A stretch of DNA of 50,460 nt from assembly GCA_044342325.1 (NCBI GenBank), contig JBIIPZ010000020.1, positions 1 to 50,460 on the forward strand, written 5' to 3'. Below are positions 7,985-38,204 of this stretch, piece after piece; the stretch's first letter is position 1; every line of letters begins with the position of its first letter. Under the pieces are notes generated by a model that searched no databases, was not told where the DNA came from, and was given only the letters and a program-made list of their open reading frames with translations. The stretch is from Terrimicrobiaceae bacterium (GTDB lineage Bacteria > Verrucomicrobiota > Verrucomicrobiia > Chthoniobacterales > Terrimicrobiaceae). The position numbers and the translations under genes were made by a program.

Positions 7985-10096
7985 TCAAGCGCCGCTTCCC
8001 GTGCGGCGGGTGAGTTCGTCGCGGCGGGCGGTTTGGATTTCTTTTTCGAGGGCTTGTCGAGCGTTTTGGCGGTCTTTGAGTTCTTGCATGAAGGAGGATT
8101 GCAGGGCTTCGCGATCCTTGAGCAGGGCTACGACCTCGTCGCGGGCCTGGACGATGAGCGGTTCCACGGCTTTGGCTTCTGGGCTTTCGGGGGTCTGTGT
8201 GAGGAGTGGCTCAAAAGGTTTCACCGCCTCGCCGAGCCAGCGGATGACGCAGTCTGCTCGCCTTGTCGCGGCGAGGTTGTTCGAAAGCGAGATGTCGCTG
8301 GCGGCGATTTTTTTAAAGTAATCGATCGCCTCGTTTGCCGTGGGAGTCAGGACGGCAACTTGGTAGGAGCTTGTGGCAGGTCCGCGCGACTCTTCCGGCG
8401 GATTCACAGGAATGGCTCTGGCGACTTGCGGCTCTTTTTGCGGAGCGGGTGCAGGCGCTGGGGTCTCCTGTGGCGTTGGTTGCGGGAGAGTTTCTTGTGT
8501 TGGGATAACGGCGATCGCGGAGGGTTTTGGTGGTTGTTGCGGCGTGGTAGCCGAGGCCATGGGAGTTGTGGAGGCTTGCTCTGGAGCCAGCTGAGGCGTG
8601 GCAGCGGGCTCCGGCTTCGGAGGTTCGGGAGTGGGAGCCAGGGCGAGATCCACGACAGGCGGGGTTTCCAATGGCTCGCTGTCGAGCAGTGGAGGAGCAG
8701 GCTTGGTCAGGAAAGCAGTTGGTGCAGGGGCCTGGGGGTCGGCGATGCGTGCGGGAGGGAGGACGGGTTCTGGAGTGTCCGGCGGCTCGTAGGTGGCGGT
8801 ATTTTCAGCTTGAGGAGGGAGGCCCAGGTCATTGAGGAGGTCAACTGTATCGTCTGGGGCAGCTGCCTTCGGAGCACTCGAGAGGAGGGCGTTTCCTGCC
8901 GGTTCGAAGGACATCTCCGGCAGCGGGGTGTCGAAATCGACTTTCTGTATCTCGGCAAACAGAGCTGCATTTGATGCCTTCTTTTTTTTGCTGACGCGAA
9001 TGAAACGCGGATCCTCCCATTGGCCGAGAAAGCGGCTGGGATCATGGAAGAGGGGCGGGGCTTTGCCTGGCGAGAAGCGTCGGGGATCGCTGATGGCGCG
9101 CTGCATGAGGTCGCCAGAGAGTTTGAGGTCCGAGCCGGGGGCGGTTTTTCTGAGTTGGTCGGCGAGGTAGGGCATGGTGCGGACGGCGAATCCCTTGAAG
9201 GGGTTTTGCACATTGTCGCGCGGGTTTTCCGCTTTGAAATTTTGGATAGCCTGAAGACTGCCGCCCGAGAGGATGTTGCTCAGGTTGACTCGGAGGGGAG
9301 GCACGGATTTCCGGGAGGCTGTGCCGGCGATCGGGCTGTATTGGCGCGATGGGAGGCTGTCGAGGAGGGCGAAGTAATCGAGTTGTCCGTTGCGGCCGCC
9401 TTGTTGGACGAGGTGGTGGTAAAGATCGTCCATGCGACCGGCGTAGGGACGGAGAAAAATGCCGTCCGCAACCAGGTGCTCGCCTACATCTGCGGCGTAG
9501 ATGCGGGTGAAGAGACTTTGGAGCTCGGCGAATTTTTGCGAAGACCAGCCCGCATTGCGTGAAGAGTCGAGAGCCTGTGCTCGGGAGGGTTCCAGGGGAA
9601 CGATCCATGCGGGGAGTTCGCGGTCGAGTGCGATGGGGCGCCCGCCGAGGCCAATGATGGCATCGATGTTGCGGAAGTTCCCGCCGGTGAGTCGGGATCC
9701 ATCGAAATTTATGGTATCGGCCGGCGGGAATTTCGAGGCTGCGGCAGCCTGCTCGGCTGTGTCGGGATTTTCCGCCAGAAAAATGTCGGCTAGCTGGTTA
9801 AGGGTCGTCGGCTGAAGGCGTGGGAGGAGGCGGTCGAATTTCGTGAGAAGGATGATGGAAAGAGCGGCCTGAGTGGTGCGCTGACGCTCGGAATCAGGAA
9901 GATCTCTTGCAGCGCGGGCAAGCGCGGTGGCGGTCGCAGCGGATTGTTGAAGGACGGGAACAGCCTTTTCCTGCGACGCGGTGGCATCTGCAGCCCTCAG
10001 GGGAGTGCTGGCGAAGATGAGAGCCGAAATCCCAGCAAAGCCCAGCATTACCGTCTTCTTTCCAGCTTCGCAGGCTCTCGGGAGAGATCTTGTCAT
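7985..10096 (-). CDS. Large exported protein with Pro/Ala/Thr-rich linker and C-terminal coiled coil
   Basis: 703 aa, signal-like MLGFAGISALIFASTPLRA; co-oriented just downstream of the motAB genes. Confidence 0.75.
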   Translation of the reverse strand: MTRSLPRACEAGKKTVMLGFAGISALIFASTPLRAADATASQEKAVPVLQQSAATATALARAARDLPDSERQRTTQAALSIILLTKFDRLLPRLQPTTLNQLADIFLAENPDTAEQAAAASKFPPADTINFDGSRLTGGNFRNIDAIIGLGGRPIALDRELPAWIVPLEPSRAQALDSSRNAGWSSQKFAELQSLFTRIYAADVGEHLVADGIFLRPYAGRMDDLYHHLVQQGGRNGQLDYFALLDSLPSRQYSPIAGTASRKSVPPLRVNLSNILSGGSLQAIQNFKAENPRDNVQNPFKGFAVRTMPYLADQLRKTAPGSDLKLSGDLMQRAISDPRRFSPGKAPPLFHDPSRFLGQWEDPRFIRVSKKKKASNAALFAEIQKVDFDTPLPEMSFEPAGNALLSSAPKAAAPDDTVDLLNDLGLPPQAENTATYEPPDTPEPVLPPARIADPQAPAPTAFLTKPAPPLLDSEPLETPPVVDLALAPTPEPPKPEPAATPQLAPEQASTTPMASATTPQQPPKPSAIAVIPTQETLPQPTPQETPAPAPAPQKEPQVARAIPVNPPEESRGPATSSYQVAVLTPTANEAIDYFKKIAASDISLSNNLAATRRADCVIRWLGEAVKPFEPLLTQTPESPEAKAVEPLIVQARDEVVALLKDREALQSSFMQELKDRQNARQALEKEIQTARRDELTRRTGSGA

Positions 10097-10137
10097 CTCA
10101 ATAGAAGATCAGATAGCCCTCCTGCTGGCGGTGCGGG

Positions 10138-10428
10138 TCAATAGTTGCACTGCAGGGTGATTTTCTCCCCGCAGGTGCATGTGATGACGATATGGCCGAT
10201 GCGCCCCTCGGTATCGGGAACGAGTTCGACTTGGGGTTCGGAGGAGCCCTGCATTGTGATGGACTCGGGGAGGGATTGGCTGTCGAGATCGATGTCGGAA
10301 AGGTTGATGCTATCCGGGTGGATATGGGGCGTGTTGATCGGCGGCAGAGGAGTTGAAGCTACAGAAGACTCTGCGCGGCGATTGGATGCGCCTCCTGCGA
10401 GCGGACGACCTTGGAGAAAATCCTTCAT
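10138..10428 (-). CDS. Small hypothetical protein with a C-terminal CxCG...C motif
   Basis: 96 aa, 4-nt overlap with the motB stop, ends HIVITCTCGEKITLQCNY. Confidence 0.75.
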   Translation of the reverse strand: MKDFLQGRPLAGGASNRRAESSVASTPLPPINTPHIHPDSINLSDIDLDSQSLPESITMQGSSEPQVELVPDTEGRIGHIVITCTCGEKITLQCNY

Positions 10429-11210
10429 CGGGCGGTGGGATTGGGAGTGGCTGGAGCGGCTCCTGGACTTGGGGCAGGAGTTGGTTGAGGAGCTGATTGC
10501 GTGAGCGAAAGGCTAACGGTGATGCGTTGGTTATCCTCGGAGTCCGCTGGAACATTTGGGAGCGGCTGGGAATCTCCGCAGCCGGCGATGCGTTTCATTT
10601 TTTCCGGCGTCATGGCGTAATACTCTAGGAGGCGTCGTGCTGCATTGGCGCGGTCGGTGCTCAGTTCCCAGGGCGTGTAGTTTTTATTCGGTCCTAGGTC
10701 GAGCCCCTTGGGAGTGTGGCCCTCGAGGTAAACTTGAAAGCTGTAGCGTTGAATGAGCCAGGAGAGGTTTTGGAAGACGAAGTTGCCCCATTCGGTGAAC
10801 TCTGTGGTGTTGTCCTTGAAGAGCGGCTTCTTCGTGCGGTTGTAGATTTCCATTTTCAGCCCGTCGTCGGTGATGGTGATCTCGATGGGCCTTTTCTCCT
10901 CGTCGTTGACATTGAGGAGTCGGTTGAAGTCACGCGCGATGGCACGAAGGAAACCCTGATTCTCGGTATGGGTCTGGTCGTTGAGTGAGGCATCCTTGCG
11001 GGTGGCTTGGATTTCCTTCTCCATGACGCCCCATGTGGTCGGCCAGTTCTTGTTGGTGGGATCCTTGAAGTAGAGTGATGTGTAAACAAGGATCTCTGGC
11101 TTGAAGTTGGCAATCCACAGAACGAGGAAGAGGGCCATCATGGACGTGACGAAGTCCGCGTAGGCGACTTTCCACGCTCCGCCGTGGTGTTCGTGTTTTT
11201 TCTTGGCCAT
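10425..11210 (-). CDS. motB: Flagellar stator protein MotB
   Basis: HGGAWKVAYADFVTSMMALF TM with the conserved Asp; OmpA-like EGHT...WELSTDRANAARR. Confidence 0.95.
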   Translation of the reverse strand: MAKKKHEHHGGAWKVAYADFVTSMMALFLVLWIANFKPEILVYTSLYFKDPTNKNWPTTWGVMEKEIQATRKDASLNDQTHTENQGFLRAIARDFNRLLNVNDEEKRPIEITITDDGLKMEIYNRTKKPLFKDNTTEFTEWGNFVFQNLSWLIQRYSFQVYLEGHTPKGLDLGPNKNYTPWELSTDRANAARRLLEYYAMTPEKMKRIAGCGDSQPLPNVPADSEDNQRITVSLSLTQSAPQPTPAPSPGAAPATPNPTAR

Positions 11211-11215
11211 GAATA

Positions 11216-12082
11216 TTAGTTGCCGGGGGTGCCGACATTTTTGACCATTTCTTCGACGGCTTCCGCTGTGGGTTGGAAGGCGGGATCAATGGCACGGCGG
11301 GCGGCCTCGATGGCCATGATGGGGGCCATGCCGCCAGTGAAGCCCAGCACACCCTTCATGATGACCGCGTAGTATTGGAGTTCATAAACATTGTTGAGCT
11401 TGATGCGGGCGGCGAGGGGGTTAATGAACCCGTAGGCTCCGAGCACGCCGAGGAAGGTTCCGACGAGCGCTGCGGCGACCTTCTGGCCGACTTTTTCGGG
11501 GCCCATGGCAATCGCGGCCATGGTGTTGATGATGCCCATAACAGCAGCCACGATACCGATGCCCGGCAGGGAGTCGCCGACGAGGTTGAGAATGTGAATC
11601 GGCTGGACGGCATCCTCTTCCTTGGCTTCAAAGTCGGCATGGAGGAGGCCACCGAGTTGCTCGGGCTTGAGGCGGCCGTCGATGACCGGTTTCAAGCTGT
11701 TTGTGAGAAACTCCAGGCGCTCGTGGTCGTTGATGAAGGAAGGGTATTTCGAGAGGATGGGGCTCTCTTTGGGAGACATGACATCGTCTTCAATCGCGAT
11801 CAAACCGCCGCGGCGGGCTTTGCTGAAGAGTTCGTAGAGGAGTTTGAGGAGGTCGGTGTAATCGGATGTCGGAACGGCCTGATTGCGGAAGGCGACCTTG
11901 ATTTTTTTGACGATGTTTTTCAGCAACGATACCGGACTGGCGATGACCATGAGGCCGATCGAAATGCCGATGATGATCACATAGTCCGAAATCGGGAAAA
12001 GGAGGCCTAGTTTGCCGCCGGCCATCATAAAGCCGCCGAGTGTCGAACCGAGAACGATAATATAACCTATTATGAGAATCAT
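11216..12082 (-). CDS. motA: Flagellar stator protein MotA
   Basis: KARRGGLIAIE, LPGIGIVAAVMG, AAALVGTFLG...YG. Confidence 0.95.
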   Translation of the reverse strand: MILIIGYIIVLGSTLGGFMMAGGKLGLLFPISDYVIIIGISIGLMVIASPVSLLKNIVKKIKVAFRNQAVPTSDYTDLLKLLYELFSKARRGGLIAIEDDVMSPKESPILSKYPSFINDHERLEFLTNSLKPVIDGRLKPEQLGGLLHADFEAKEEDAVQPIHILNLVGDSLPGIGIVAAVMGIINTMAAIAMGPEKVGQKVAAALVGTFLGVLGAYGFINPLAARIKLNNVYELQYYAVIMKGVLGFTGGMAPIMAIEAARRAIDPAFQPTAEAVEEMVKNVGTPGN

Positions 12083-12133: not shown

Positions 12134-12928
12134 TCAGCGTTCCATGGCTTTGCGGATGTAAGCCTTCAGGCCGAGAACCGCCTGAGTGTGGATTTGGCAG
12201 ATACGGGATTCTGTGACTCCGAAAACCTTGGCGATCTCTGCGAGGCGGAGGTTTTCAAAGTAATACATGGCGAGAATTTTCCTCTGCATGTCGGGAAGCA
12301 TCTGAAGGCGCTCCACGACGAGCTTGATGAGTTCCTGTTTCAGCGCGATGTCGCGGGCATTCGGCTGGTTCTCGTCGGCGATGACTTCGTGCAGGCTGGA
12401 GTCTTCGTCGTCTCCAGCCAGCGCGTCGAGTTCCACATAGCTGAGCGGGCGAACTTCATCGAGTAGGATCGAGTATTCCTCGCTGGAGATACCGAGTTCA
12501 TCGGCGATTTCCGCTTCAGTGGCAGGGCGGCCGGCGTTTTGCTCGAAGGCGGAGATGACATCGGTGAGCTTTTTGGCTTTGACGCGGAGTGTGCGGGACA
12601 TCCAGTCGACGCGGCGGAGTTCGTCGAGCACAGCCCCTCGGACGCGCATGGCGGCGTAGGCGGCGAAGGTAACGCCGTGTGTGGGGTCGAAGCGGCGTTG
12701 GGCTTGAATGAGGCCGAGGAGACCTACCGAGTAGAGGTCATCGACATCGAGATGTGCTGGGAGGCTGGCACGCATGCGGTCCACCACGGAGCGGACGAGA
12801 GGCATGTGGTTTTTAAGAGTCTCCTCTTCGCTGCCCTGTGAGACACCGCCGTAGGCACGCCATGCCGCCGTGTATTTTTGAGCATCGGGCCGGGGAGGGG
12901 ACATGATGGGTTCGGCGAGTTGCTGCAT
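12134..12928 (-). CDS. fliA: sigma28 (FliA/WhiG family) sigma factor
   Basis: DDLYSVGLLGL, RVRGAVLDELRRVDW, GVTESRICQIHTQA. Confidence 0.95.
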   Translation of the reverse strand: MQQLAEPIMSPPRPDAQKYTAAWRAYGGVSQGSEEETLKNHMPLVRSVVDRMRASLPAHLDVDDLYSVGLLGLIQAQRRFDPTHGVTFAAYAAMRVRGAVLDELRRVDWMSRTLRVKAKKLTDVISAFEQNAGRPATEAEIADELGISSEEYSILLDEVRPLSYVELDALAGDDEDSSLHEVIADENQPNARDIALKQELIKLVVERLQMLPDMQRKILAMYYFENLRLAEIAKVFGVTESRICQIHTQAVLGLKAYIRKAMER

Positions 12929-12930: not shown

Positions 12931-13212
12931 TTAGGCGGCCGGTTGGGCAGGCGTCTCAGGCATGCTGTCCTGTGGCGGCTGGGCTTCCTCCGCAGTGGCT
13001 TTTTCGATATCGCGGAGGCGGGCCTTCTCGGCCACGACTTGCTTGGCGCAGTATTCGACAATAAATCGGAAAACTCTGAAGAGCAGTGCTGTAAGGACGC
13101 AGCCGATGGTCGCATTGAACACTGTGTCTTCAAGGTTTTTGCCTGCAATAAGGCTCACCAGAAAGGCGAGAATGAAGCCGGTGAAGCCTCCGATGAGCGT
13201 GAAGTATTGCAT
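12931..13212 (-). CDS. Small two-TM protein, FlgV-like by size and position
   Basis: 93 aa, two N-terminal TMs and a charged tail, directly upstream of fliA. Confidence 0.65.
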   Translation of the reverse strand: MQYFTLIGGFTGFILAFLVSLIAGKNLEDTVFNATIGCVLTALLFRVFRFIVEYCAKQVVAEKARLRDIEKATAEEAQPPQDSMPETPAQPAA

Positions 13213-13247: not shown

Positions 13248-13263
13248 AGCAATTCTTGCGCCA
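13248..13263 (-). promoter_or_regulatory. sigma54 -24/-12 promoter for the flgV-like-fliA-motAB operon
   Basis: Minus strand TGGCGCAAGAATTGCT (GG-N10-GC). Confidence 0.85.
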
Positions 13264-13377: not shown

Positions 13378-15552
13378 TCAAGCGGCTGCAGGCATGCGTT
13401 CAGCTGGTGGGGGAACGATGATGCCTGTATTTTGGATTTCGGTTTGCGAGGGAAGTTCTTGGTAGGAGAGAACGATGAGTTTGGGCAGGGAGGGCTCGAA
13501 GAAGCGCTTGAAGGCCAGGCGGAGTTCGGCCGTGAGAATGGTGATGGGTGAGAGACCTTGCTCGGCGAGGGAGTTTGAGCGGATGGTGAGTTCGCGGAGG
13601 AGGTATTGCGCGGTGTTCGGATCGAGCGCGAGGGTGGTCTCGAAATGGGAGCGCTGGATGCGGGTCATCAGGGTTTGCTCAAGGCGTGGATCGATGGTGA
13701 TGCACTTGATGAGACCAGGCTCGGACTCGTATTGGCTGATGAAGTAGGTGCCGAGGCGGCGGCGGACCTGCTCGGAGAGTTCGTCTGGGTTTTTTGTGAC
13801 CGGTGCATAGTCGGCGAGCGTCTCCAGAATGAGCGGCAGGTTTTTGATCGGCACGCCCTCGCGGAGGAGGTTTTGCAGGACGCGCTGGATGATGCCGAGG
13901 TTGACCAGGTCGGGGAGGAGTTCGGCGATGAGTGCGGGGTTGGACTCTTTGACGCGGTCGATGAGGGACTGGACTTCCTGACGCGTGAGGATGAGGTGGG
14001 AGACTTGTTTGAGGGTTTCCGCGAGGTGGGTGATCATCACGGATGTGGCATCCACGACGCTGTAGCCATTGATTTCGGCGGTGCGTTTTTCTTCTTCTGC
14101 GATCCAGACGGCTTCAATGCCGAAGACGGGTTCGCGTGTGGGGACGCCTTTGAGGTTGACCATGCTGCCGGAGACATTCATGGCAAGCCAGCGGTTGGGG
14201 ATCACTGAGGCGCGGGCAAAGGATTTGCCCCGGAGGAGGAAGTTGTATTCGTTCGGCTCAAGTTCCAGACTGTCGCGGATGGCGATCGGAGGAATGACCA
14301 TGCCGTTGTCGCGGGCAAAGCCTTTGCGAACGCCGGTGATGCGGTCGAGGAGGTCGCCGCCTTGGGTTTTATCGGCAAGGCGGAGGAGTCCATAGCCTAC
14401 TTCGATGGAGAGGACTTCGGCTTCGATGAGCTTGTGGAGATCTTCCGGGCCGGTATTGGCGGGGGATCCTTGACCACCTGCGGCTACTTGCTGACCTCCT
14501 TGGTTGGCATTTCCTCCACCAGGTGCGGGAAGTGCAAGGGTGCTGCCTTTGGCGCCGGCCGCGAGCGGGTTTTGGGATTGTTTTTTCAGCATATAGGCCA
14601 CGAAGCCTGTGATGCCGCCGAGTATGAGGAAAGGGGCTGCCGGCATGCCGGGGGCGAGGGCGAGAGCCGCTATGAGGCCGGAGGCGATGCCTACGGCGCG
14701 AGGGTAGGCTCCGAGTTGTTTTCCTATCTGGGCTCCGAGGCTGTTGTCGCCTTGGGCGCGAGTCACGAGCAAACCGGCGGCAACGGAGATGACCAGCGCG
14801 GGGACTTGGGAAACAAGGCCGTCACCGATGGAAAGGAGTGTGTATTTTTGGAGGGCTTGGTCGATGGGCATGCCCTTTTGGAGCATGCCGATGCCGAATC
14901 CGCCGATGACGTTGATGAAGGTGATGAGGATGCCGGCCACGGCATCGCCTCGCACGAACTTGCTGGCACCGTCCATCGCACCGTAGAAGTCGGCTTCTTT
15001 TTGGACTTTGAGTCGGCGGGATGTGGCGGTGAGTTCATCGATGATGCCGGCGTTGAGTTCGGCGTCGATGGCCATCTGTTTACCCGGCATCGCGTCCAGG
15101 GTGAATCGTGCGGCGACCTCGGCGATACGGCCCGCGCCCTTGGTGATGACGACGAAATTGATGATGACGAGAATGATGAAAACGACGGCTCCGACGATGT
15201 AGTTGCCTTGGATGAGCACATGGCCGAAGGCTTCGATGACATTTCCGGCGAAGCCGTCGAGCAGGATGAGTCGCGTGGAGGCGATGTTCAGCGCCAATCG
15301 CAGCAGGGTGACGGCAAGGAGAATAGTTGGGAAGGCGGAGAACTCCGGAGGATCCTTCACATAGATGATCACGAGCAGGATCAGCAGCGAGATGCCGATG
15401 TTTACGGACAGTAAAAAATCAAGGGCCCATGTTGGAACCGGGATGACCAGCAGGAGTATGATGGCAAAGAGGCCAAGAGTGAAGATTAGGTCGGTCTGTT
15501 TGAGCAGATCGCTCCACTTGAATCTTGAGGTTTGGGCGTTTGCGGTGGCCAT
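13378..15552 (-). CDS. flhA: Flagellar export gate protein FlhA
   Basis: RIAEVAARFTLDAMPGKQMAIDAEL, FYGAMDGASKFVRGDA, LLSIGDGLVSQ. Confidence 0.97.
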   Translation of the reverse strand: MATANAQTSRFKWSDLLKQTDLIFTLGLFAIILLLVIPVPTWALDFLLSVNIGISLLILLVIIYVKDPPEFSAFPTILLAVTLLRLALNIASTRLILLDGFAGNVIEAFGHVLIQGNYIVGAVVFIILVIINFVVITKGAGRIAEVAARFTLDAMPGKQMAIDAELNAGIIDELTATSRRLKVQKEADFYGAMDGASKFVRGDAVAGILITFINVIGGFGIGMLQKGMPIDQALQKYTLLSIGDGLVSQVPALVISVAAGLLVTRAQGDNSLGAQIGKQLGAYPRAVGIASGLIAALALAPGMPAAPFLILGGITGFVAYMLKKQSQNPLAAGAKGSTLALPAPGGGNANQGGQQVAAGGQGSPANTGPEDLHKLIEAEVLSIEVGYGLLRLADKTQGGDLLDRITGVRKGFARDNGMVIPPIAIRDSLELEPNEYNFLLRGKSFARASVIPNRWLAMNVSGSMVNLKGVPTREPVFGIEAVWIAEEEKRTAEINGYSVVDATSVMITHLAETLKQVSHLILTRQEVQSLIDRVKESNPALIAELLPDLVNLGIIQRVLQNLLREGVPIKNLPLILETLADYAPVTKNPDELSEQVRRRLGTYFISQYESEPGLIKCITIDPRLEQTLMTRIQRSHFETTLALDPNTAQYLLRELTIRSNSLAEQGLSPITILTAELRLAFKRFFEPSLPKLIVLSYQELPSQTEIQNTGIIVPPPAERMPAAA

Positions 15553-15564
15553 GTGGCGGACGGA

Positions 15565-16659
15565 TCAGGATTTCAGACGGCGGGATTTGAGTTGGTAGAA
15601 GTAGTAGCGGTGTGTGCGGTAAACGTAACCAAGAATTTCGGCTATGGCTTGGTAAAGTTGGGCTGGAATGGGTTTGCCGACCTGACCGAATTTGTAAAGT
15701 GCACGGGCAATCGGTTTGTTTTCCACTGTGGGGACTTCGTGTTTCGATCCGATGGCCTTGATGCGTTGGGCAAATATATTTTGGCCTTTGGCAAGAACGA
15801 CAGGGGCCGCATCCACGCCGCGCTCGTATTTCAGAGCCACCGCGTAGTGCGTCGGATTTGTGACGATCACATCGGCATTCGGCACATCGGCGAGCATCTG
15901 TTTTTGCATCAGTCGGCGGGCCATGGCGCGTTGGGCCATCTTAACATTTGGGTCGCCCATAGCTTGGCGATTCTCGTCCTTGATCTCCTGCTTGGTCATC
16001 ATGAGATCCTTTTCGGTTTTTTTAAGTTGGAAGATGTAGTGGAGGAGGGCGAGTCCGCCCATGGCGAGGGCGAGTCGGAAGAAAAGGGAGAGCGTCGAGT
16101 CGTAGATGAAGCTCCCGATGCGGAAAACGGGAACTGGAGTGAAGAAGATCGGGTCGGCGAGGATTTGTTTGACGCTACCGTAGATGAGGACTCCTACGAC
16201 GAGACACTTTCCCGATTCCACGAATAGCTTAACGATGCCCTGTTTGCTGAAGATGCGTTGGAATCCGGTTACGGGGTTGAGCTTTTCAAATTTGAAGCCT
16301 GCCACCTCTGGAGTTGCTTTGAAATGGGTCTGGAGTCCTCCGGCGAGGATGCTGGCAACGGTTGTGGCCAAGAACATCGGGGCTAGTAGACCGAACATGG
16401 TCAGGAAGGCCATGCCGGTCCATTGTGGGATGACATCGCTGATGATTTGGTATTTTTCGAGGTTGCCGAGGATGCTGGCCACCATTTCGGTCATGTAGCG
16501 GGATTGGCTGTCCAGCGTGAAAAGGAAAACGAAGTAGGCTGCGACGAGGCCAAACACAACCTGAATCTCAGGCGCCTGGGCGAATTGCCCCTTGTTGTGG
16601 GCCTCCGACAGTTTTTTCTCTGTCGGTTTCTCTGTTGCGTTGTCGTTTTCGTTCGCCAT
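15565..16659 (-). CDS. flhB: Flagellar export switch protein FlhB
   Basis: TEKPTEKK start, KLNPVTG, autocleavage motif TNPTHYAVAL. Confidence 0.96.
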   Translation of the reverse strand: MANENDNATEKPTEKKLSEAHNKGQFAQAPEIQVVFGLVAAYFVFLFTLDSQSRYMTEMVASILGNLEKYQIISDVIPQWTGMAFLTMFGLLAPMFLATTVASILAGGLQTHFKATPEVAGFKFEKLNPVTGFQRIFSKQGIVKLFVESGKCLVVGVLIYGSVKQILADPIFFTPVPVFRIGSFIYDSTLSLFFRLALAMGGLALLHYIFQLKKTEKDLMMTKQEIKDENRQAMGDPNVKMAQRAMARRLMQKQMLADVPNADVIVTNPTHYAVALKYERGVDAAPVVLAKGQNIFAQRIKAIGSKHEVPTVENKPIARALYKFGQVGKPIPAQLYQAIAEILGYVYRTHRYYFYQLKSRRLKS

Positions 16660-16666
16660 CGCAGTT

Positions 16667-18563: not shown

Positions 18564-18598
18564 GCCGATGTGTATGTGAAGCCGGGCAAAGAGGGGAG

Positions 18599-30590: not shown

Positions 30591-30606
30591 AGCAGAACCT
30601 GTGCCA
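30591..30606 (-). promoter_or_regulatory. sigma54 -24/-12 promoter of the flgB operon
   Basis: Minus strand TGGCACAGGTTCTGCT. Confidence 0.82.
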
Positions 30607-31085: not shown

Positions 31086-31595
31086 TTAAGCTTGGAGCGT
31101 AGCCTTGGCGCCCGGCACAATGTGCATTGAGCCGCCTGGTTCCTTCGATGAGGCCAGTCCGCTAGGATAAGCGATCTTTGCGCTTTCAATAATCGAAATG
31201 GCTTTTTGAGCGGTTTCCTTGAGGTTTCCGTCCAATTTAAAAATCTTCTCGGTTCCATCGGCCTTCTTGAGAGCCACATTTCCATCAGGCAGGAATTTCA
31301 GATCGAACGGCTCCGAGCTTCCTTCCAGCGCCTTCGCAATTTCAGGGGATTGAAGAATTTTCTGCGACATTTGTTGCAGTGTCATTTCGACATCCGAGCG
31401 GCTGCCGATCCCCTCGGCGCTGAGGCGCTGCATGTTTTTGTATTCTGGAGTGTTCGTGGCTTTGGCGAGAACTTGTGCAAAAGCGGCTTTTTTCATTTCC
31501 GCCGCACTCGGAGCCTTCTCGGCCGAGTTGCCGGCGATGCTGCCCAAAATATTGCTGCCCAGTTTTGCGGCTGTGATGGCGAGGAGAGGATTCAT
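31086..31595 (-). CDS. Hypothetical protein with its own sigma54 promoter
   Basis: 169 aa, no clear Sec signal or TM, S/A-rich N-terminus with FAQVL. Confidence 0.75.
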   Translation of the reverse strand: MNPLLAITAAKLGSNILGSIAGNSAEKAPSAAEMKKAAFAQVLAKATNTPEYKNMQRLSAEGIGSRSDVEMTLQQMSQKILQSPEIAKALEGSSEPFDLKFLPDGNVALKKADGTEKIFKLDGNLKETAQKAISIIESAKIAYPSGLASSKEPGGSMHIVPGAKATLQA

Positions 31596-31613: not shown

Positions 31614-31629
31614 AGCAACTCCTGTGCCA
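31614..31629 (-). promoter_or_regulatory. sigma54 -24/-12 promoter
   Basis: Minus strand TGGCACAGGAGTTGCT. Confidence 0.85.
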
Positions 31630-31686: not shown

Positions 31687-33153
31687 TCAGCGCGCCACTG
31701 CGCTGGGCGGGGCGATTTGGTTTGCGGCTTGCTGGGTGGATTCAGAAGGGGATGGGGGGGTGGCTGCGGGTTTTTCGGTTTTCAGGAAGGCGGGTTGTAG
31801 GTCGCTGCCTGGGGTTTCCTTGTCGAGGAGGGGGTAGAGGTCGCGTTCGGTTTTTTCGAGCCAGTCGAGGTTATCGAGGCGCCATTGGGCCATGTCGCGG
31901 AGGGTGGCGAGGTTCATGCCGACCATGGCGTCGCCTTCGGCGGCGGGGGCATTGACCGGGATTTTGTCGATGATGTAGCGGTAGGCTTCGCGGGCACGGG
32001 CGTGGTGCCGGAGGCGTTCGAAGCAGAGGCCGATCTGGTAGACCGTGGGACCACGCCAATTCGGGGCATCGTTGAGTTCGGCGAGTTTTTGATAGACGGA
32101 AAGGGCGCCGAGCGTGTCGCCGGTCTCGTAGAGTTCGTTGGCGATTTCGTTTCCAGTTTTGCGCTGCCAGTAGGCCCATACGGCAGGTTTCTTCTTTCCG
32201 AATTCGCGGCCGGCTTGGAGGAGCTTGATGGTTTCCTTCATGGCTTCCTCTTTTCGGCCAAGGGAGCGGAGGGACTGCACGCGGAGATACTGGGCTTCTG
32301 GGGCAAGGGGGCTGGTGGGGTAGGTGGCAAGGAAGCCTTCAGCGCCTGTGAGGGAGTTTGTGAATTGGCCTGAGAGGTAAGAAATGTAAGCGGAACGGAA
32401 GGCAACTTCGCTGGCTTCGGCTTGTGTCATTTTCACGAGCTTCAGGCGCGAATAGAGTTCGGCAGCGGCCTTGTAGTCGCCGGCGGAAAAGTGCGTATGC
32501 GCGATCTCCATTTTTGCCCGCAGTGAGGAGTCGGTGTATTCCTCGCCGGTTTTGACTTGGAGCGCTGAATACAAAACGCTGTAAAATTTGTTCAAGGCAC
32601 TGGAGTAGGCGCCGTTCTCGCGGTAAATCCGCCCGAGTCGCAGAAGCGTGTCGGGAGCCTCTGGATCGCTTGGGAAGAGATTGACGAACTGCTCGTAAAC
32701 AACGGCGGCCTTGGCGGGTTGTTTTTGTTTATCCTCCAAATTGCGGGCCATGAGCAACAGGGCGTTGCGTTTTTGTTTTTCAGGAGCAGACAGGCGGAGG
32801 ATTTGGTTGAATAATTTTTCCGCCTGAGCCGGGTCGCCATTCTCTATGGCCTGCTGCATTTCCTGCTCGAGCGCTTCTACGCTGGCTCCGCTGGCCATGA
32901 GGCTCGGAGCGTAGGCGGGATTCTCATCAAGCTCGACTTCCAGTGCATCAAATTCGATCGGCACAGCCATGCCGGCTGGGCTTGCGGTGGGCGTGAGAGA
33001 ATTCTGCAGGGGGGGGGCGGCGTGGCTTTCCATCAAGGCCGGTGCCGCTGCGCTCTGCGGCGCGGCATCTGGAGCGATGGGCGGTGGGGCGGCGATTTCC
33101 GCATGGGCTGCGGCTGCGAGGAAGAGTGCGGAAAGTCCGGTAAGGCGGCGCAT
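31687..33153 (-). CDS. Exported tetratricopeptide-repeat protein
   Basis: Sec signal MRRLTGLSALFLAAAAHA; TPR-like repeats (AAVVYEQFVNLFPSDPEAPDTLLRLG, FLATYPTSPLAPEAQY, YQIGLCFERL). Confidence 0.85.
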   Translation of the reverse strand: MRRLTGLSALFLAAAAHAEIAAPPPIAPDAAPQSAAAPALMESHAAPPLQNSLTPTASPAGMAVPIEFDALEVELDENPAYAPSLMASGASVEALEQEMQQAIENGDPAQAEKLFNQILRLSAPEKQKRNALLLMARNLEDKQKQPAKAAVVYEQFVNLFPSDPEAPDTLLRLGRIYRENGAYSSALNKFYSVLYSALQVKTGEEYTDSSLRAKMEIAHTHFSAGDYKAAAELYSRLKLVKMTQAEASEVAFRSAYISYLSGQFTNSLTGAEGFLATYPTSPLAPEAQYLRVQSLRSLGRKEEAMKETIKLLQAGREFGKKKPAVWAYWQRKTGNEIANELYETGDTLGALSVYQKLAELNDAPNWRGPTVYQIGLCFERLRHHARAREAYRYIIDKIPVNAPAAEGDAMVGMNLATLRDMAQWRLDNLDWLEKTERDLYPLLDKETPGSDLQPAFLKTEKPAATPPSPSESTQQAANQIAPPSAVAR

Positions 33154-33155: not shown

Positions 33156-33653
33156 TTATTCGACTTTGTATGAGGTGCTGCTGACGGGTTGGTTGGCCGC
33201 GTTTGCGGGCCGGAAAACGGTGTCAAAGAAGGATCCCAGAACGGTCTCTCCAGCGGGGCCATCCCCTGCGCCTTGGAAGAAGTCCTGCGTCTGCTCGTTG
33301 TTGATGAACTTCGGCGTCGTGCTGTCAACGACTCTGGACTCGCTCACGGAATCGGAGTCGCTTGCCATCGCGGGCACATCGTCCTTCTCGGGGATGTTGA
33401 CTATGGTTTTTGGAAGAAGAGGGGGCTTGCGGCGTGCGTTGGTATCCTGCGCAACACGCATCGGGGCGGGCTTTGGCAGCTTTTGCGGCATCGCCGAGAC
33501 CTGCGGGCTTGTTTTTTTCTTTGGAGAGGAGGAGCAAGAGCTCAAACTCAATGATACTAGGCTGAAGACCAAGGCCAAGCTCGCGAGAGAGAGACCCCGA
33601 TGTAACGCGGCGGAAAGCGCGGATTTTTGGTCGGTTGATTGGATGGGGCGCAT
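33156..33653 (-). CDS. Putative lipoprotein, largely low-complexity
   Basis: Hydrophobic stretch ending LSLSSC (lipobox-like); ATG 33653 lies just downstream of the sigma54 motif. Confidence 0.65.
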   Translation of the reverse strand: MRPIQSTDQKSALSAALHRGLSLASLALVFSLVSLSLSSCSSSPKKKTSPQVSAMPQKLPKPAPMRVAQDTNARRKPPLLPKTIVNIPEKDDVPAMASDSDSVSESRVVDSTTPKFINNEQTQDFFQGAGDGPAGETVLGSFFDTVFRPANAANQPVSSTSYKVE

Positions 33654-33671
33654 ATGAAGTTCCATGTGTTC

Positions 33672-33687
33672 AGCAACTCCCGTGCCA
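33672..33687 (-). promoter_or_regulatory. sigma54 -24/-12 promoter for the lipoprotein-TPR operon
   Basis: Minus strand TGGCACGGGAGTTGCT, full consensus. Confidence 0.88.
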
Positions 33688-33810: not shown

Positions 33811-33826
33811 AGGCATGAAAATTGCT
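33811..33826 (+). promoter_or_regulatory. sigma54 -24/-12 promoter, divergent
   Basis: AGGCATGAAAATTGCT, 12 nt before ATG 33839. Confidence 0.72.
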
Positions 33827-33838: not shown

Positions 33839-34588
33839 ATGACATTTCGAATCCTTTGTCTTTTGGCCGCCCTCTCCCTCGTGGCCTGCTCGAATCCTTC
33901 TACTCGCGCCGTAAATGATAAACCCAATCGCTCTGGCCGAATTCAGCAGATTTCTGATCCGACGATGTCGCTTCCGCCGCAGGATCTCTCCGCAAGCGCT
34001 GGCATTCGCTGGCCTGCGGGAATGCGCCGTCTTGCAGTCCTCCCCATTTATTCCACGCGGCCGATCGACCAGACCCAGCGCGATATGGATGGCATTTTCC
34101 GCGCGGAGTTGTCGAAGGTCGTGAAATACGAGATCGTTCAAGTCAGTCGCACTGACATGGCATCGCTCATCAATCGCGAGGCGGTTTCCTCTTCCGAGAT
34201 TATCCCCTCATCCGTCATGGCCATGTTGCGCCAGAAATACGGAGCCGATGCCGTTCTTTTCACGGACTTTACGCTCTTCCGTCCCTACCGTCCGCTTGCT
34301 ATCGGGGTGAGGTCGAAGATTGTGGATGTCAAAACAATGGAAATCCTGTGGATGGCGGATGGTATTCTTGATTCGGCGGAACCCGATGTCTCCGAGTTAG
34401 CTACCCAGTTTTCCGACTCGGGACTCCAGATGCGATATGTCAGCGACAAGATTCCCAAGGGCAGGCAGCGTGAGCAGGGAAGCGGAAACCAAATCATCCT
34501 TCAAAGCCCGCGCCTGTATGCCGCCTTTGTGGCCCACGAGGCTTTTTCGAGTCTTGCTCCAGCGCCGGTTGCCGCGCCTGCACGGTAA
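33839..34588 (+). CDS. Lipoprotein of CsgG/LpoB/GNA1162/FlgO-like fold
   Basis: Lipobox LVAC; RRLAVLPI, YGADAVLF, SKIVDVKTMEILW. Confidence 0.75.
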   Translation: MTFRILCLLAALSLVACSNPSTRAVNDKPNRSGRIQQISDPTMSLPPQDLSASAGIRWPAGMRRLAVLPIYSTRPIDQTQRDMDGIFRAELSKVVKYEIVQVSRTDMASLINREAVSSSEIIPSSVMAMLRQKYGADAVLFTDFTLFRPYRPLAIGVRSKIVDVKTMEILWMADGILDSAEPDVSELATQFSDSGLQMRYVSDKIPKGRQREQGSGNQIILQSPRLYAAFVAHEAFSSLAPAPVAAPAR

Positions 34589-35379: not shown

Positions 35380-36639
35380 GTGAACAAATCCTCTTACTCC
35401 ATTCTGTCTATCGACGACGACCCGATCATCCTCAAAGTCCTTGAGGATCTGGTGACGCGGGCTGGCTATCATTCCATGACCACCACGAGTGGCGAGGAGG
35501 CCCTGCATTTGGCGGTGGATCGCAAATTCGCCGTGATCATTGCCGATCACAACATGCCGGACATGATGGGCTCGGAGTTGCTTAATCGCATCGCGCGGAT
35601 TCAGCCCTCGGCCTCGCGTATATTGATTACAGGCATCAAGTCGCTCGATGTCGTCACCTCGGCGGTGAATAGCGGTGAGATTTTCCGCTTTGTTACGAAG
35701 CCGTGGATTTCCGCTGAAATGATCGCCACTCTGCACAACGCTGTGCAGCGTTACGAGCTCATCGAGTCCAACCGATCCCTCGAAAAAACAACGCAGGAGT
35801 TGAACGAACGCCTCTCTGCGGCAAACCTCCAGCTCGAGCGCCAGCTCAAGGAACTCGAGGCGGGGAAAAAAGAAATCGACCTGTCTCATGAGGCGCTGAA
35901 AACAAACTTCAGCCGCTCGCTGGAGCTGTGCCAGCGTATCCTCACGACATTCAATCCCCTCCTCGGCGAACAGGCTAAGGCCGCCACGGGGATCTGCCAG
36001 ATCATGGCGCAGACCCACTATTTCAACGAGGAGCAAAAGCATGTGCTGGATGTGAGCGCGCGGCTCTACGACATCGGCCTCACCGCCGTGCCGCACGGAT
36101 TCATGTCCGCTGTTCAAAACAACTCCGAGGACATGTCGCCGGAGTTGAAGACGGTTTTCCTCAACCACACGATCCATGCACAGACTCTGGCATCCTTTGT
36201 GGACCTCCTGAAGCCGGTGGGGGAAACGATTCGCGCCCACCACGAGCGCTTCGATGGAACCGGTTTTCCTGATGGCCTCGCCGGGGAGATGATTCCCTGG
36301 ACGGCGCGCTGCCTCGCGGTTGTTGTCTATTATGTGACCTGCGGACTTCCTCAGGAGCAGGCCGTGGATCGCATCCTCGAGCAGTCGGGCACGGCTTTCG
36401 ATCCCGATGCCACCAGGCTTTTCCTCAAGTGTGCCCAGGCGACCCCCCTGCCGCGTCTGGTTCGCGAAGTGATGGTGGACGAGTTGGATGTCGGCATGCA
36501 ACTCGCCTCCGGCATTTACAGTCCCACTGGCGTTCTGCTCGTCGCCGAGGGCTACCATCTCGACGAAAATACCATCGCAAAAATCCGGAACTACAACAGT
36601 TCCTCGACACTCCTCCGTCAGTTGCTGGTTTATTGCTGA
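35380..36639 (+). CDS. Response regulator with a degenerate HD-GYP domain
   Basis: REC (IDDD, ADHNMP, TG, KPW), coiled coil, LYDIG, HHERFDGTGFPDGL. Confidence 0.88.
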   Translation: MNKSSYSILSIDDDPIILKVLEDLVTRAGYHSMTTTSGEEALHLAVDRKFAVIIADHNMPDMMGSELLNRIARIQPSASRILITGIKSLDVVTSAVNSGEIFRFVTKPWISAEMIATLHNAVQRYELIESNRSLEKTTQELNERLSAANLQLERQLKELEAGKKEIDLSHEALKTNFSRSLELCQRILTTFNPLLGEQAKAATGICQIMAQTHYFNEEQKHVLDVSARLYDIGLTAVPHGFMSAVQNNSEDMSPELKTVFLNHTIHAQTLASFVDLLKPVGETIRAHHERFDGTGFPDGLAGEMIPWTARCLAVVVYYVTCGLPQEQAVDRILEQSGTAFDPDATRLFLKCAQATPLPRLVREVMVDELDVGMQLASGIYSPTGVLLVAEGYHLDENTIAKIRNYNSSSTLLRQLLVYC

Positions 36640-38204
36640 GAGACGCGGCCTTCCAGCAGGCTGCCGACTTTGGATATCAGATCACCCACGGAGAACGGCT
36701 TTCGGAGGAAGGCAAAGTCCGTTTCGTGTTCCTTGGCTATTTCCTGCTGATCTGGGTATCCCGAGGTCAGGAGAAAAGTTGTCTCCGGCCATTTTTTTTC
36801 GATCTTGCGGGCCAGTTGAAGTCCCCCCATGCGAGGCATGACCATGTCGGTGAAAACCAAATCCGGCGCGAATGCCTCATTGTCTTCGAAATAGGAAAGC
36901 GCCGTCTCGCCGTCCTCTGCCTCCACAACGCGGTGGCCAAGGCGTTGCAAGACGGTGCGGGCGAAGCTTCGAATGGCTGAGTCGTCCTCCACCAGAAGGA
37001 TCGTGGCCGGAGCGGTTGTTCTCCCCACGGTATGGATATCGGCCTTGGGCGGGGCTTCCTGGACGCTGGGCAGAAAGAGATCCAATCGGCTCAAACCATG
37101 CGCAGCACTTGGGATCTCAAGCCGACCTTCGTTTTCTTCGATAACCTCTGCCGCTGTGGCGATGTTACGGTTTTTTTCGAGGGTTTTTGAAACTCCTCGG
37201 CCTGATTTTGGAGAGTAGGTCAGTGAGACGCGGGCATAATTGCCTGGCGGCAGGGATTTTTGCGCGATGCGGCGGGCGTCTTGAATCACATCCCGGGCTA
37301 CATTGATTTTGAGTTGCCCGCCTTGGGACATCACTTCACGTGCGGCTACGGCGAGGTTGATGAAAACTTGTTCGATTTGGCTGCGGTCGGCCTGCACGGC
37401 GGGCAGGCCGGGCTCGATGTCGATGACCAGTTCGATCTGTTCGCCCAGCAGGCGGCGCAGCATTTTGACGACATCATTTAAAAGCTCGCCGATATTGATC
37501 GAGCCTCGGCGAATGGCCGGAGGTTTGCTAAAGGCGAGAAGCTGGTTCGTGAGTGAGGAGGCGCGGAGCGCGGCCTTTTCGATCTCCCCCACGAAGCCGG
37601 TCAGTTCGTTTGTCTCCGGCATTTCATCCCTGAGGATTTGTGCGTAGCCGATCACGACGGAGAGCATGTTGTTGAAATCATGCGCCACGCCGCCAGTGAG
37701 CTTGCTGAAGGCCTCAGCGCGCTGCGATCTGCTGAGGCGTGCTTCCATCTCACGCAAATCCGCGACATCCGTGATCACCGAGCAGAGCACGGGGCTGCTC
37801 CCTTCTGCCGGAGCTATGAAGTATCCACGCTCGAGAAGAATGGTGTAGAGACCGCTCTTTTTTCGTGCCCTGTATTCCGCTTCAAACGGCCCGCCTTCGG
37901 CAAGAACACGCTCGATTTCGCGGCGGTAGGCCATGCGGTCGTCTGGATGGATGAGGAGCATCCAGATTTCAAATTGTCCGGCTATCTCGTGCGGGAAAAT
38001 TCCAAGAATCCGCTCCATCGCGCCCGAGTAGATCGTTTCATCCACGGCAGTGTCCCATTCGCGCAAGATCTGCTCTGCAGACTGCATGGCCCCCTCCATG
38101 CGCAGTTTCCACTGCCGGAGTTTTCGGAGTTCCGACTTCAACGCGTCATCATTCAGAGGAGGCGTCGAGACGGTCTCAGAGATGTTTGGATTTGAGCGAT
38201 GCAC
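36630..38204 (-). CDS. PAS-domain hybrid histidine kinase-like protein (CckA-like) with a degenerate ATPase domain
   Basis: PAS3 (IHPDDR), H-box AHDFNNML, N-box NLAVAAR, C-terminal REC (VEDD, TDMVMP, SGY, KPF). Confidence 0.87.
   Translation of the reverse strand: MHRSNPNISETVSTPPLNDDALKSELRKLRQWKLRMEGAMQSAEQILREWDTAVDETIYSGAMERILGIFPHEIAGQFEIWMLLIHPDDRMAYRREIERVLAEGGPFEAEYRARKKSGLYTILLERGYFIAPAEGSSPVLCSVITDVADLREMEARLSRSQRAEAFSKLTGGVAHDFNNMLSVVIGYAQILRDEMPETNELTGFVGEIEKAALRASSLTNQLLAFSKPPAIRRGSINIGELLNDVVKMLRRLLGEQIELVIDIEPGLPAVQADRSQIEQVFINLAVAAREVMSQGGQLKINVARDVIQDARRIAQKSLPPGNYARVSLTYSPKSGRGVSKTLEKNRNIATAAEVIEENEGRLEIPSAAHGLSRLDLFLPSVQEAPPKADIHTVGRTTAPATILLVEDDSAIRSFARTVLQRLGHRVVEAEDGETALSYFEDNEAFAPDLVFTDMVMPRMGGLQLARKIEKKWPETTFLLTSGYPDQQEIAKEHETDFAFLRKPFSVGDLISKVGSLLEGRVSQQ

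Follow-up and report, generated by a model that had tools for sequence, protein, structure and literature searches.

The 50,460-bp contig JBIIPZ010000020.1 of a Terrimicrobiaceae bacterium (assembly GCA_044342325.1), analysed here over its whole length and called the window below, carries a flagellar gene cluster together with a set of genes for envelope proteins of no described family. The host is a freshwater Verrucomicrobiota bacterium, whose genome (2.93 Mb, 78 contigs, rated 86% complete; G000) includes the window as contig C37. The window carries the core genes of a flagellum that is complete, of conventional type and spans the outer membrane, and the regulon of which is spread over several contigs; this much is already known biology. 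To the known machine is added an accessory set that is undescribed and specific to the order. Five of the proteins, lipo249, TPR488, u169, u703 and lipo165, are likely to be dedicated to the flagellum in some way, and the reading as a whole, a conventional flagellum with accessory factors of its own, is probable. These envelope proteins without a known family track flagella genome by genome, and most members of the order have lost flagella. The accessory proteins are located as follows.

7985..10096, minus strand: u703, an exported protein of 703 residues that bears a signal peptide; its gene closes the cluster, behind motB and u96
10138..10428, minus strand: u96, 96 residues long, conserved at the N-terminus (MKDFLQGR) and carrying a CxC...C motif near the other end, where the sequence closes with CTCGEKITLQC
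12931..13212, minus strand: u93, a protein of 93 residues, predicted to have two membrane helices and encoded between flhA and fliA
31086..31595, minus strand: u169, a 169-residue protein without a known family, its gene directly preceding flgB
31687..33153, minus strand: TPR488, a 488-residue periplasmic protein with TPR repeats and a signal peptide
33156..33653, minus strand: lipo165, a lipoprotein (lipobox LSSC), co-oriented with TPR488, with its real start Met at 33653
33839..34588, plus strand: lipo249, a 249-residue lipoprotein (lipobox LVAC) whose model shows an alpha/beta domain like those of TolB-N, PelC, LpoB, GNA1162 and FlgT

An earlier note on this DNA had listed a TPR protein, two lipoproteins, a 169-residue protein, a 703-residue exported protein and a CxCG-type protein, and all of them exist as open reading frames (ORFs) as described there. 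The note had also proposed that co-occurrence of the accessory genes with flagellar genes be checked, and this was done in three sets of genomes: (a) 61 genomes, consisting of the window's own, 36 of its genus and 24 that belong to the order but to other genera; (b) 251 genomes of the order, drawn evenly and covering 79 genera; and (c) a phylum draw of 401 genomes. The searches for TPR488 and u169 covered the 61 genomes plus five more.

In set (a), FliG_C was detected in 33 of the 36 genomes of the genus and, among the 24 others, in G053 alone. The accessory genes followed closely: lipo249 was present in 36/36 genomes of the genus, u703 and u169 in 32/36 each, and all three were found outside the genus in G053 only. 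TPR488 was likewise present in 36/36 and in G053 (E 7e-73); among the non-flagellated genomes, 5 of 23 gave weak partial matches (25–30%) to much longer TPR proteins. In set (b), FliG_C was found in 28/251 genomes, belonging to eight genera and four families. The lipo249 profile matched 27 of these 28 FliG-positive genomes and none of the 223 FliG-negative ones. For the N-domain of u703 the count was 17/251, made up of 16/28 FliG-positive genomes and 1/223 FliG-negative genomes, the latter with a partial match. One genus (g199) has FliG in a single genome out of nine, and lipo249 and u703 occur in that same genome alone. Orthologues of TPR488 were present in all five flagellated genomes tested from three other families (E 6e-89 to 3e-112), and lipo165 in one of the five, with no match found in the other four. 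Hence co-occurrence was clear for lipo249, and u703, TPR488 and u169 behaved alike where tested. Judged by gene content, the distribution requires the genes to have been gained or lost along with flagella several times, within families that include non-flagellated genera as well.

Beyond the order, the flagellar clusters of ten Verrucomicrobiota genomes from other families were searched by ORF profile. A gene for an FlbB-like protein was found in 10/10 and u93 in 4/10 (E 2e-12 to 1.4e-8); u96 was found in one (E 7.8e-5), or in two if a match at E 0.025 is counted. The accessory proteins sort into three layers by range: u93 and u96, small proteins at fixed operon positions well beyond the order; lipo249, TPR488 and u169, which, in the genomes searched, occur throughout the order in its flagellated members only; and u703 and lipo165, which occur in a subset of those.

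Gene order gave a similar picture. The row u93-fliA-motA-motB-u96-u703 is kept in three genomes (G457, G505, G646), u96 follows motB also in the loci of the genus, and in G053 the u703 homologue comes directly after flhA. In the family f8, four genomes have lipo249, a gap, a response regulator gene (RR-HD, described below), u169 and flgB in that order, and three genomes of the family f6 have lipo249, a HisKA gene, RR-HD, flgF and flgG together, with u169 before flgB. In six genomes of other families lipo249 lies 7–11 kb from fliG. In loci of the genus, recN / PAS kinase / RR-HD / HisKA / lipo249 / lipo165 / TPR488 form a block that stays united, even in the 5/12 loci where its lipoprotein/TPR part does not adjoin flgB. 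The neighbourhood of lipo165 and TPR488 is retained in the genus loci and in G053, G505 and G457.

Sequences resembling the −24/−12 promoter element of sigma54 were located upstream of several of these genes.

13248..13263, minus strand: sigma54-like −24/−12 motif with one mismatch, 35 nt before u93, at the head of u93-fliA-motAB-u96-u703
30591..30606, minus strand: sigma54-like motif TGGCACAGGTTCTGCT with one mismatch, 12 nt before the start of flgB
31614..31629, minus strand: exact sigma54 motif TGGCACAGGAGTTGCT, before u169
33672..33687, minus strand: exact sigma54 motif TGGCACGGGAGTTGCT, before lipo165-TPR488, identical in four loci of the genus
33811..33826, plus strand: weaker sigma54-like motif AGGCATGAAAATTGCT with two mismatches, 12 nt before lipo249

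When up to two mismatches were allowed, 32 matches were counted in the window against 26 expected. This is about what chance would give, so only sites with no mismatch or one are counted here, and reliance is placed on conservation. Exact TGGCAC-N5-TTGCT motifs stand 18–19 nt before u169 and before the lipo165-TPR488 pair. The frame listed for lipo165 has 229 residues and starts upstream of the sigma54 motif; the true start is the Met at 33653. Genome-wide, base composition predicts about 2.9 exact copies of TGGCAC-N5-TTGC[AT], whereas nine were counted; the window contains two of the nine, and another stands ahead of a flagellin-like gene on contig C12. A one-mismatch motif lies 14 nt before flgF on contig C24 (near 9451). 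Among 32 related loci scanned with at most one mismatch, the motif was kept before flgB in 17, u169 in 19, lipo165 in four, lipo249 in three and flgF in two, while the five spacer bases varied; the distance from motif to flgB was mostly 12 nt across the 17 loci, and the form preceding lipo249 in three genus loci was AGGCACGnAAATTGCT. The genome has rpoN (contig C44) and three strong sigma54 activators. The features of sigma54-dependent flagellar genes, namely a GG-N10-GC element upstream, rpoN and enhancer-binding proteins, were thus all found.

The conserved motifs support co-regulation of the accessory genes with the early flagellar operons, on the supposition that they serve as promoters. 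Expression probably runs through a sigma54-to-sigma28 cascade: the motifs and rpoN are there, and on the reading that they are used, the −24/−12 motifs would drive the flgB, flgF, u169, lipo165-TPR488 and u93-fliA-motAB-u96-u703 units, and fliA from within the cluster would then drive the late genes. It had been claimed in the earlier note that the accessory genes all lie downstream of sigma54 motifs. This held for u169 and lipo165-TPR488, where the motif is exact, and for the u93 unit, where it has one mismatch, but the motif at lipo249 has two mismatches.

The accessory proteins were then compared with known families. Pfam covered nothing of u703, lipo249, lipo165, TPR488 or u169 apart from generic TPR repeats, and NCBIfam gave nothing for u703, u169, lipo249, u96 or u93. 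Profile searches with the u703 N-domain, lipo249 and u169 against PDB sequences returned nothing under E 0.02.

The family of lipo249 comprises 181 proteins, all unnamed, with some of the sources labelled Terrimicrobiaceae or Verrucomicrobiota. Its model has a core with a predicted local distance difference test score (pLDDT) of 71–92. Foldseek matched the model to GNA1162, CT253, TolB-N, PelC, LpoB, CsgG and FlgT (E 7.8e-7 to 3e-5); the top match, the GNA1162 structure 4hrv (E 7.8e-7), has 16% identity and is a likeness of fold only. With VIA-align the top match was a chain of the Vibrio LPHT ring at Z 10.1, on a par with PelC at Z 9.9 and with others. Against the GNA1162-like/DUF799 family PF05643, lipo249 scored 16.9 bits (E 0.0049), below the cut-off of 25.9, and no Pfam FlgT domain was found in it at E up to 0.01. 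Among proteins of this fold class, several assemble into rings beneath the outer membrane or attach to the machinery of peptidoglycan. The modelled fold fits a motor accessory, without proving it.

The layout of u703 is a signal peptide, a conserved N-domain of about 350 residues, a Pro-rich linker and a helical C-domain. In the N-domain, 83 columns are invariant among nine sequences with identity down to 38%. Relatives are rare, with 1.84 billion representatives yielding 75 clusters at 50% identity, and u703 belongs to no Pfam or NCBIfam family. Of the 75 distant relatives of the N-domain, 45 were scanned with Pfam: 43 had no domain, one had a weak BAR_4 match and one, a protein of 2149 residues, had scattered hits. 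The ESM Atlas yielded no usable match for this domain. In another genome of the genus (G025, C4 325694–327900; L035) the u703 gene is in three separate frames or pieces, the result either of a decaying gene or of assembly errors.

For u169 the N-terminus is conserved and lacks a classical signal peptide. Among 10 family members scanned, none gave a Pfam match above chance level, and the ESM Atlas held only unnamed Verrucomicrobiota clusters, at 0.90–0.92. FlgM, FlaG and a rod-cap domain were considered as identities for u169 and had no profile support. TPR488 matched the YbgF/CpoB profile TIGR02795 with 82.2 bits (E 4e-23) over 100 of its 488 residues, under the cut-off of 90.1. lipo165 is largely disordered and of low complexity, with two strongly conserved peptide motifs. 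A complex prediction for TPR488 (residues 86–450) with lipo165 (residues 41–165) had a score of 0.00 and a mark of 0.32, which is no evidence either way. The start of u96 overlaps the stop of motB by 4 nt.

Contigs from four freshwater metatranscriptome runs (X1–X4, four studies) fell on the cluster at 90–100% likeness; they give no strand, ends or level, and stretches without cover carry no meaning. There was one difference in 460 bases for u169 and three in 536 bases for lipo249, and TPR488 was covered too.

A number of observations weigh against the reading of these proteins as accessory factors that build a structure of the flagellum. Related genomes are not independent samples, and many of those used are incomplete metagenome-assembled genomes. 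One FliG-positive genome (G583) had no lipo249 match. In set (c), where 51/401 genomes were positive for FliG, the u703 domain was strong in 3 of the 51, all from the window's genus, and absent from the other 48. Weak u703-like matches occurred in FliG-negative genomes, namely five of the family f22 (5/5 genomes), whose gene is a doubtful relative, and G491, and the wider u703 family may not be flagellar in origin. In one f22 genome (G188, C1 ~198300–200000; L092:8324–9985) the weakly u703-like ORF has 553 residues and lies downstream of a TraG/VirD4-type coupling protein. None of u169, lipo249, lipo165, TPR488 and u703 was found near the flagellar loci of the ten genomes from other families, where cheR and cheB fill the position upstream of flgB. 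As far as gene content tells, flagella elsewhere in the phylum thus function without them.

Other points against it concern the proteins and their expression. The AlphaFold2 model of the u703 N-domain (from a 9-row alignment) failed, with a mean pLDDT of 47.7. The curated matches nearest to TPR488, YbgF/CpoB and BamD, are general envelope proteins, both under cut-off. The fold modelled for lipo249 is generic among envelope lipoproteins, the matches lying within 1 Z unit, and confers no membership of a flagellar family. The sigma54-type motifs end just 11–18 nt before the start codons (window 30578–30606; 31595–31629; 33653–33687). Transcription usually starts about 11–12 nt past the GC element, so the mRNAs are predicted to be nearly leaderless; sigma54-driven leaderless flagellar transcripts would, to our knowledge, be unusual. 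DNA carry-over is possible in RNA libraries, and the metatranscriptome contigs establish only the presence of the sequence there.

These points bring up the view that the accessory genes are general envelope genes (Tol-Pal, BAM or peptidoglycan) that merely neighbour the flagellar genes and co-occur with them through shared clade ancestry. TPR488 does resemble the TPR domains of YbgF/CpoB and BamD, the lipo249 fold is common to TolB-N and LpoB, and the lipoprotein/TPR block is away from flgB in five of the 12 genus loci. However, such genes would be expected in non-flagellated relatives also, and the pattern tracks flagella per genome in four families with non-flagellated genera (lipo249 27/28 vs 0/223; g199 1/9). 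Moreover, linkage to differing flagellar genes (flgB, flgF, flhA, motB) recurs across families, and the accessory genes have conserved sigma54 motifs upstream that are similar to the one at flgB. We consider this view very improbable. Within the scope of the genomes searched, lipo249, u703, TPR488 and u169 appear to be specific to the order rather than PVC- (Planctomycetota, Verrucomicrobiota and Chlamydiota) or phylum-wide. The earlier note had offered a PVC motor with lineage-specific scaffold parts as one reading; the flagellum-linked co-occurrence and the synteny bear out the lineage-specific parts, but these are restricted to the order and not common to the PVC group, and the scaffold role is still inferred.

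As to that role, export or lipoprotein signals are present on four of the five proteins (lipo249, lipo165, TPR488 and u703), u169 having no classical signal. Given the export signals, the fold of lipo249 and the precedent of Campylobacter and spirochaetes, in which stator scaffolds are made of TPR proteins, a periplasmic or outer-membrane structure is the likeliest job. We tentatively suggest, by analogy, that the set may form or assemble such a structure round the motor, either as a stator scaffold or as a bushing accessory. The cluster also encodes a candidate for its anchor, and a group of signalling genes adjoins lipo249.

23642..24337, minus strand: FlbB/MotE/YlxF-like putative E-ring protein of 231 residues: a membrane helix at the N-terminus, then a coiled coil and a head resembling MgtE_N
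34588–35364, plus strand: HisKA258, a soluble HisKA-type protein
35380–36639, plus strand: RR-HD, a response regulator with an HD-GYP-type HD domain
36630..38204, minus strand: PAS-histidine kinase-receiver hybrid (Pfam), which accompanies the lipoprotein/TPR block in the genus

The 231-residue protein matched the NCBIfam family collar_FlbB with 45 bits (E 9.6e-12, cut-off 110) and Pfam MgtE_N with 20 bits (E 0.0011, cut-off 25.9). Its gene is placed between fliJ and fliK, and profile matches were found at that place in 10/10 loci of other families. From its build and position we provisionally assign the protein to the FlbB/MotE/FlgY E-ring family, though it falls under the curated cut-offs. 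Proteins of that family (COG3334) start with a membrane helix or a signal peptide, continue with a long helix and end in a head of MgtE_N/ARM type, and their genes are part of flagellar operons. Two adjoining FlbB-like matches were seen in G025 (L034 10822–11969). According to a 2026 review (PMC13023049), the E-ring family is ancient and widespread, and serves elsewhere as an anchor for TPR spokes (PflA) or collar proteins. It is conceivable, somewhat less so than the general role just suggested, that the order built its own periplasmic or outer-membrane scaffold from undescribed families around this ancient FlbB-type E-ring. The parts of such a scaffold would be lipo249 with its PelC/FlgT fold, TPR488 tethered by the disordered lipo165, u703 encoded after motB, and u169 encoded before flgB.

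The signalling genes raise a different possibility, that the accessory genes are linked to the flagellum in a regulatory or sensory capacity, as an envelope-sensing module feeding the kinase-like protein, the PAS hybrid kinase and the HD-GYP regulator. Variants of it include tuning of motility via cyclic di-GMP (c-di-GMP), assembly checkpoints or chaperones, and u169 as a secreted anti-sigma28 factor. RR-HD proteins, 46–50% identical, adjoin flgB or flgF in most of the flagellated genomes examined across the class, often accompanied by a HisKA protein and, in other families, also by cheR and cheB; on its domains and position, RR-HD is taken as a conserved c-di-GMP-type input next to the flagellar operon. 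That lipo249, HisKA258 and RR-HD are co-oriented and adjoining in the window and in the families f1, f6 and f8 fits a regulatory role no less than a structural one; the co-orientation of lipo249 with a kinase-like gene and the regulator was seen in all families examined. The retention of RR-HD by flgB across the class counts for the regulatory role. The proteins that lipo249 matches in fold include LpoB, which regulates a synthase. As for the anti-sigma28 variant, u169 has its own conserved sigma54 motif beside flgB, and no FlgM was detected in the genome (Pfam, E up to 1), which leaves that slot vacant; yet the genome is 86% complete, and FlgM may be unassembled or too divergent to be recognized, while none of 10 u169 family members scanned matches FlgM, FlaG or another family. 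Further, HisKA258 has no membrane segment or periplasmic part for contact with a lipoprotein, and TPR488, lipo165 and u703 do not adjoin signalling genes in several genomes. On balance we hold a regulatory role to be unlikely.

A literature search found no description of these families or of the structure of a Verrucomicrobiota motor, nor of accessory components of PVC motors. The parts of PMC13023049, PMC13277936 and PMC7183148 at hand contain no treatment of Verrucomicrobiota motors. The accessory genes are therefore offered as concrete candidates for motor study, and they bear on how often scaffolds evolved independently round a conserved E-ring.

The flagellar cluster itself was mapped by a six-frame ORF listing and a Pfam scan of 54 window ORFs (35 + 19), with NCBIfam profiles and their curated cut-offs used in addition. 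It is a single long cluster on the minus strand, with the known flagellar families all within 10425–30578, in the order flgB-flgC-fliE-fliF-fliG-fliH-fliI-fliJ-like-FlbB-like (231 residues)-fliK-like-flgD-flgE-fliL-fliM-fliN-fliO-fliP-fliQ-fliR-flhB-flhA-u93-fliA-motA-motB-u96-u703. The genes, identified by Pfam where no other source is given, are the following.

10425..11210, minus strand: motB, with MotB_plug and OmpA domains
11216..12082, minus strand: motA, with MotA_N and MotA_ExbB
12134..12928, minus strand: fliA, sigma28-type sigma factor (TIGR02479 FliA_WhiG, 230.8 bits against a cut-off of 189.6)
13378..19272, minus strand: the whole export gate, flhA, flhB, fliR, fliQ, fliP and fliO
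13378–15552, minus strand: flhA (FHIPEP)
15565–16659, minus strand: flhB (Bac_export_2)
16667–17425, minus strand: fliR (Bac_export_1)
17422–17733, minus strand: fliQ (Bac_export_3)
17688–18563, minus strand: fliP (FliP)
18727–19272, minus strand: fliO (FliO)
19269–19529, minus strand: fliN
19526–20524, minus strand: fliM
20564–21085, minus strand: fliL
21117–21923, minus strand: flgE, a short hook protein of 268 residues (TIGR03506 FlgEFG, 195.5 bits, above cut-off)
21959–22450, minus strand: flgD
22461–23645, minus strand: fliK-like gene
24338–24781, minus strand: fliJ
24778–26106, minus strand: fliI
26103–26789, minus strand: fliH
26689–27711, minus strand: fliG
27715–29322, minus strand: fliF
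29362–29721, minus strand: fliE
29742–30152, minus strand: flgC
30189–30578, minus strand: flgB

The inventory given in the earlier note (MS ring, C ring, export gate, ATPase, proximal rod, hook and stator) is real, as are the flanking housekeeping genes, ppk and a tRNA methyltransferase on one side and recN on the other. The torque residues that it had named can be read in the translations: the Asp of MotB in YADFVTSMM, KARRGGLIAIEDD and two Pro in MotA, and MSKRASESLKEEIEIQGPVR in FliG. We take these residues to be functionally important from work on E. coli. The 268-residue FlgE is the sole hook candidate among five Flg_bbr_C matches in the genome.

Between ppk and u703 (window 5497–7980) are three family-less ORFs on the opposite strand, of 261 residues with a zinc ribbon, 452 residues and 133 residues; a homologue of the last lies near the TPR block in G008. 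Toward the end of the contig (window 46000–50460) the G+C content drops from about 57% to 35%, and a 666-residue ORF there (48237–50237) has the Lon protease C-terminal domain alone. This end is probably foreign or island DNA.

The 54 ORFs gave no Pfam match to a second FlgF/G rod pair, FlgA/H/I, FlgK/L or flagellin, and none to FliD/S, FlgN, SRP54-type FlhF or Che families. The absence of these genes from the window, also reported in the earlier note, is thus genuine. It is the sole support for a filament-less, hook-only or otherwise reduced flagellum-derived machine, rotary or secretory, a reading that the note had entertained together with the caveat that the genes might sit elsewhere. The whole-genome search that it had suggested (fliC, flgK/L, flgF/G, flgH/I and che) found all of them on other contigs, in open frames that score over the family cut-offs. 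Three of the five Flg_bbr_C matches are on contig C24 (FlgF, FlgG and FlgK), where a single minus-strand row reads flgF-flgG-flgA-flgH-flgI-108aa-flgN-flgK-flgL-fliW. The distal-rod and ring genes of this row are open frames, all scoring over their Pfam cut-offs; FlgF also reached 183.9 bits with TIGR02490 (cut-off 178.5). Flagellin_N had 10 matches in the genome. Six follow one another on contig C9, the contigs C20, C44 and C12 have a single match apiece, and the match on C24 is flgL; about nine flagellins remain once flgL is set apart. The genes fliD and fliS are on contig C39. The genome thereby encodes the junction of hook and filament (FlgK, FlgL), the filament, its cap (FliD) and the chaperones FliS, FlgN and FliW. 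CheW domains were found at five places, three of them in long frames of CheA size, and MCPsignal at four.

With this full second set on other contigs (flgFGAHI-flgN-flgKL-fliW on C24, fliD/fliS on C39, the flagellins of C9 and elsewhere, and the chemotaxis genes) the filament-less reading falls, and the caveat proves correct. In relatives from other families flgF and flgG come directly after motB in the same cluster, so the split seen in this genome is a rearrangement and not a reduction. We give the reduced machine practically no weight, since the whole-genome searches refute the notion of a motor that lacks its filament. FlgM had no Pfam match at E up to 1 in this 86%-complete genome, but the family is short and divergent, and its absence is not demonstrated.

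Some further features of the scattered flagellar genes may be noted. The ORF of 108 residues between flgI and flgN (C24 4883–5209, minus strand; L014) carries a weak hint of a FlgJ rod-binding domain (NCBIfam, E 0.0012). On contig C52 (~62950–64660, minus strand; L094:4958–6625) a family-less ORF of 140 residues has an exact sigma54 motif 14 nt upstream, and is followed by a divergent SRP54-type GTPase of 383 residues (E 1.4e-6), which may be an FlhF encoded apart from the flagellar cluster. The six flagellin genes in a row on C9 span 418–7652. Among the flagellins, only a separate flagellin-like gene of 388 residues (C12 67577–68064) is preceded by an exact sigma54 motif, at a distance of 55 nt. 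This suggests that the flagellins fall into two regulatory classes.

It remains to compare the locus with known systems. The gene orders of the Bacillus subtilis fla/che operon and the spirochaete flgB operon resemble the present one in having a long flgB...fliJ-(YlxF/FlbB)-fliK-flgD-flgE-fliL-fliM-fliN...flhB-flhA...sigma factor operon, a short hook protein (268 residues here) and an FlbB/YlxF-type gene between fliJ and fliK. Unlike those operons, the present cluster has motAB after fliA at its end and does not contain flhF, flhG or che genes; the L/P-ring genes lie elsewhere in the genome, as befits a diderm flagellum, and sigma54-type motifs precede the operon.

The Tol-Pal and penicillin-binding protein activator proteins YbgF/CpoB, TolB and LpoB offer a likeness in that a YbgF-type TPR domain is found by a lipoprotein of TolB-N/LpoB fold. 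TPR488 is under the equivalog cut-off, however, and the genes are absent from non-flagellated relatives, unlike those of housekeeping systems.

With the Vibrio H/T ring (FlgT, FlgO, FlgP, MotX and MotY; LPHT entry 8z5n) the comparison is one of modelled structure. The lipo249 model aligned with Z 10.1 and a root-mean-square deviation of 4.8 Å over 141 residues; this match is tied with PelC, CT253, TolB-N, GNA1162 and LpoB, and so reflects a common fold without implying kinship. Against Vibrio FlgT (3w1e) the Foldseek E was 3.1e-5. Like FlgT, lipo249 is an envelope protein confined to flagellated genomes; unlike FlgT, which has three domains (FlgT_N/M/C), it has one and is a lipoprotein, and the identity is 12–14%.

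The motors of Campylobacter and Helicobacter have the TPR protein PflB and a disk of the lipoprotein FlgP. Their E-ring of FlgY, with the TPR protein PflA, is described in the 2026 review (PMC13023049), as is the Borrelia collar, in which FlbB occurs with FlcA-FlcD. Like the Campylobacter/Helicobacter scaffold, the present set combines a putative E-ring-family protein, a periplasmic TPR protein and lipoproteins, and is flagellum-restricted and sigma54-associated. It differs in that TPR488 and lipo249 have no sequence relation to PflA, PflB or FlgP, and in being confined to one order of Verrucomicrobiota. The likeness to the Borrelia collar lies in the 231-residue protein, with its FlbB build and operon position, and in the TPR protein of the accessory set; the differences are the FlbB match of 45 against 110 bits, the external flagellum with L/P rings and accessory proteins of unrelated sequence. 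TPR stator scaffolds of the PflA/PflB/FlcA type are periplasmic proteins that bind the E-ring, MotB or FliL at the motor. TPR488 is a candidate for that type by its TPR repeats, signal peptide and flagellum-restricted distribution. If the order did build its own scaffold, it would have arrived independently, by convergence, at a counterpart of the disks of Campylobacter, the H/T rings of Vibrio and the collar of spirochaetes.

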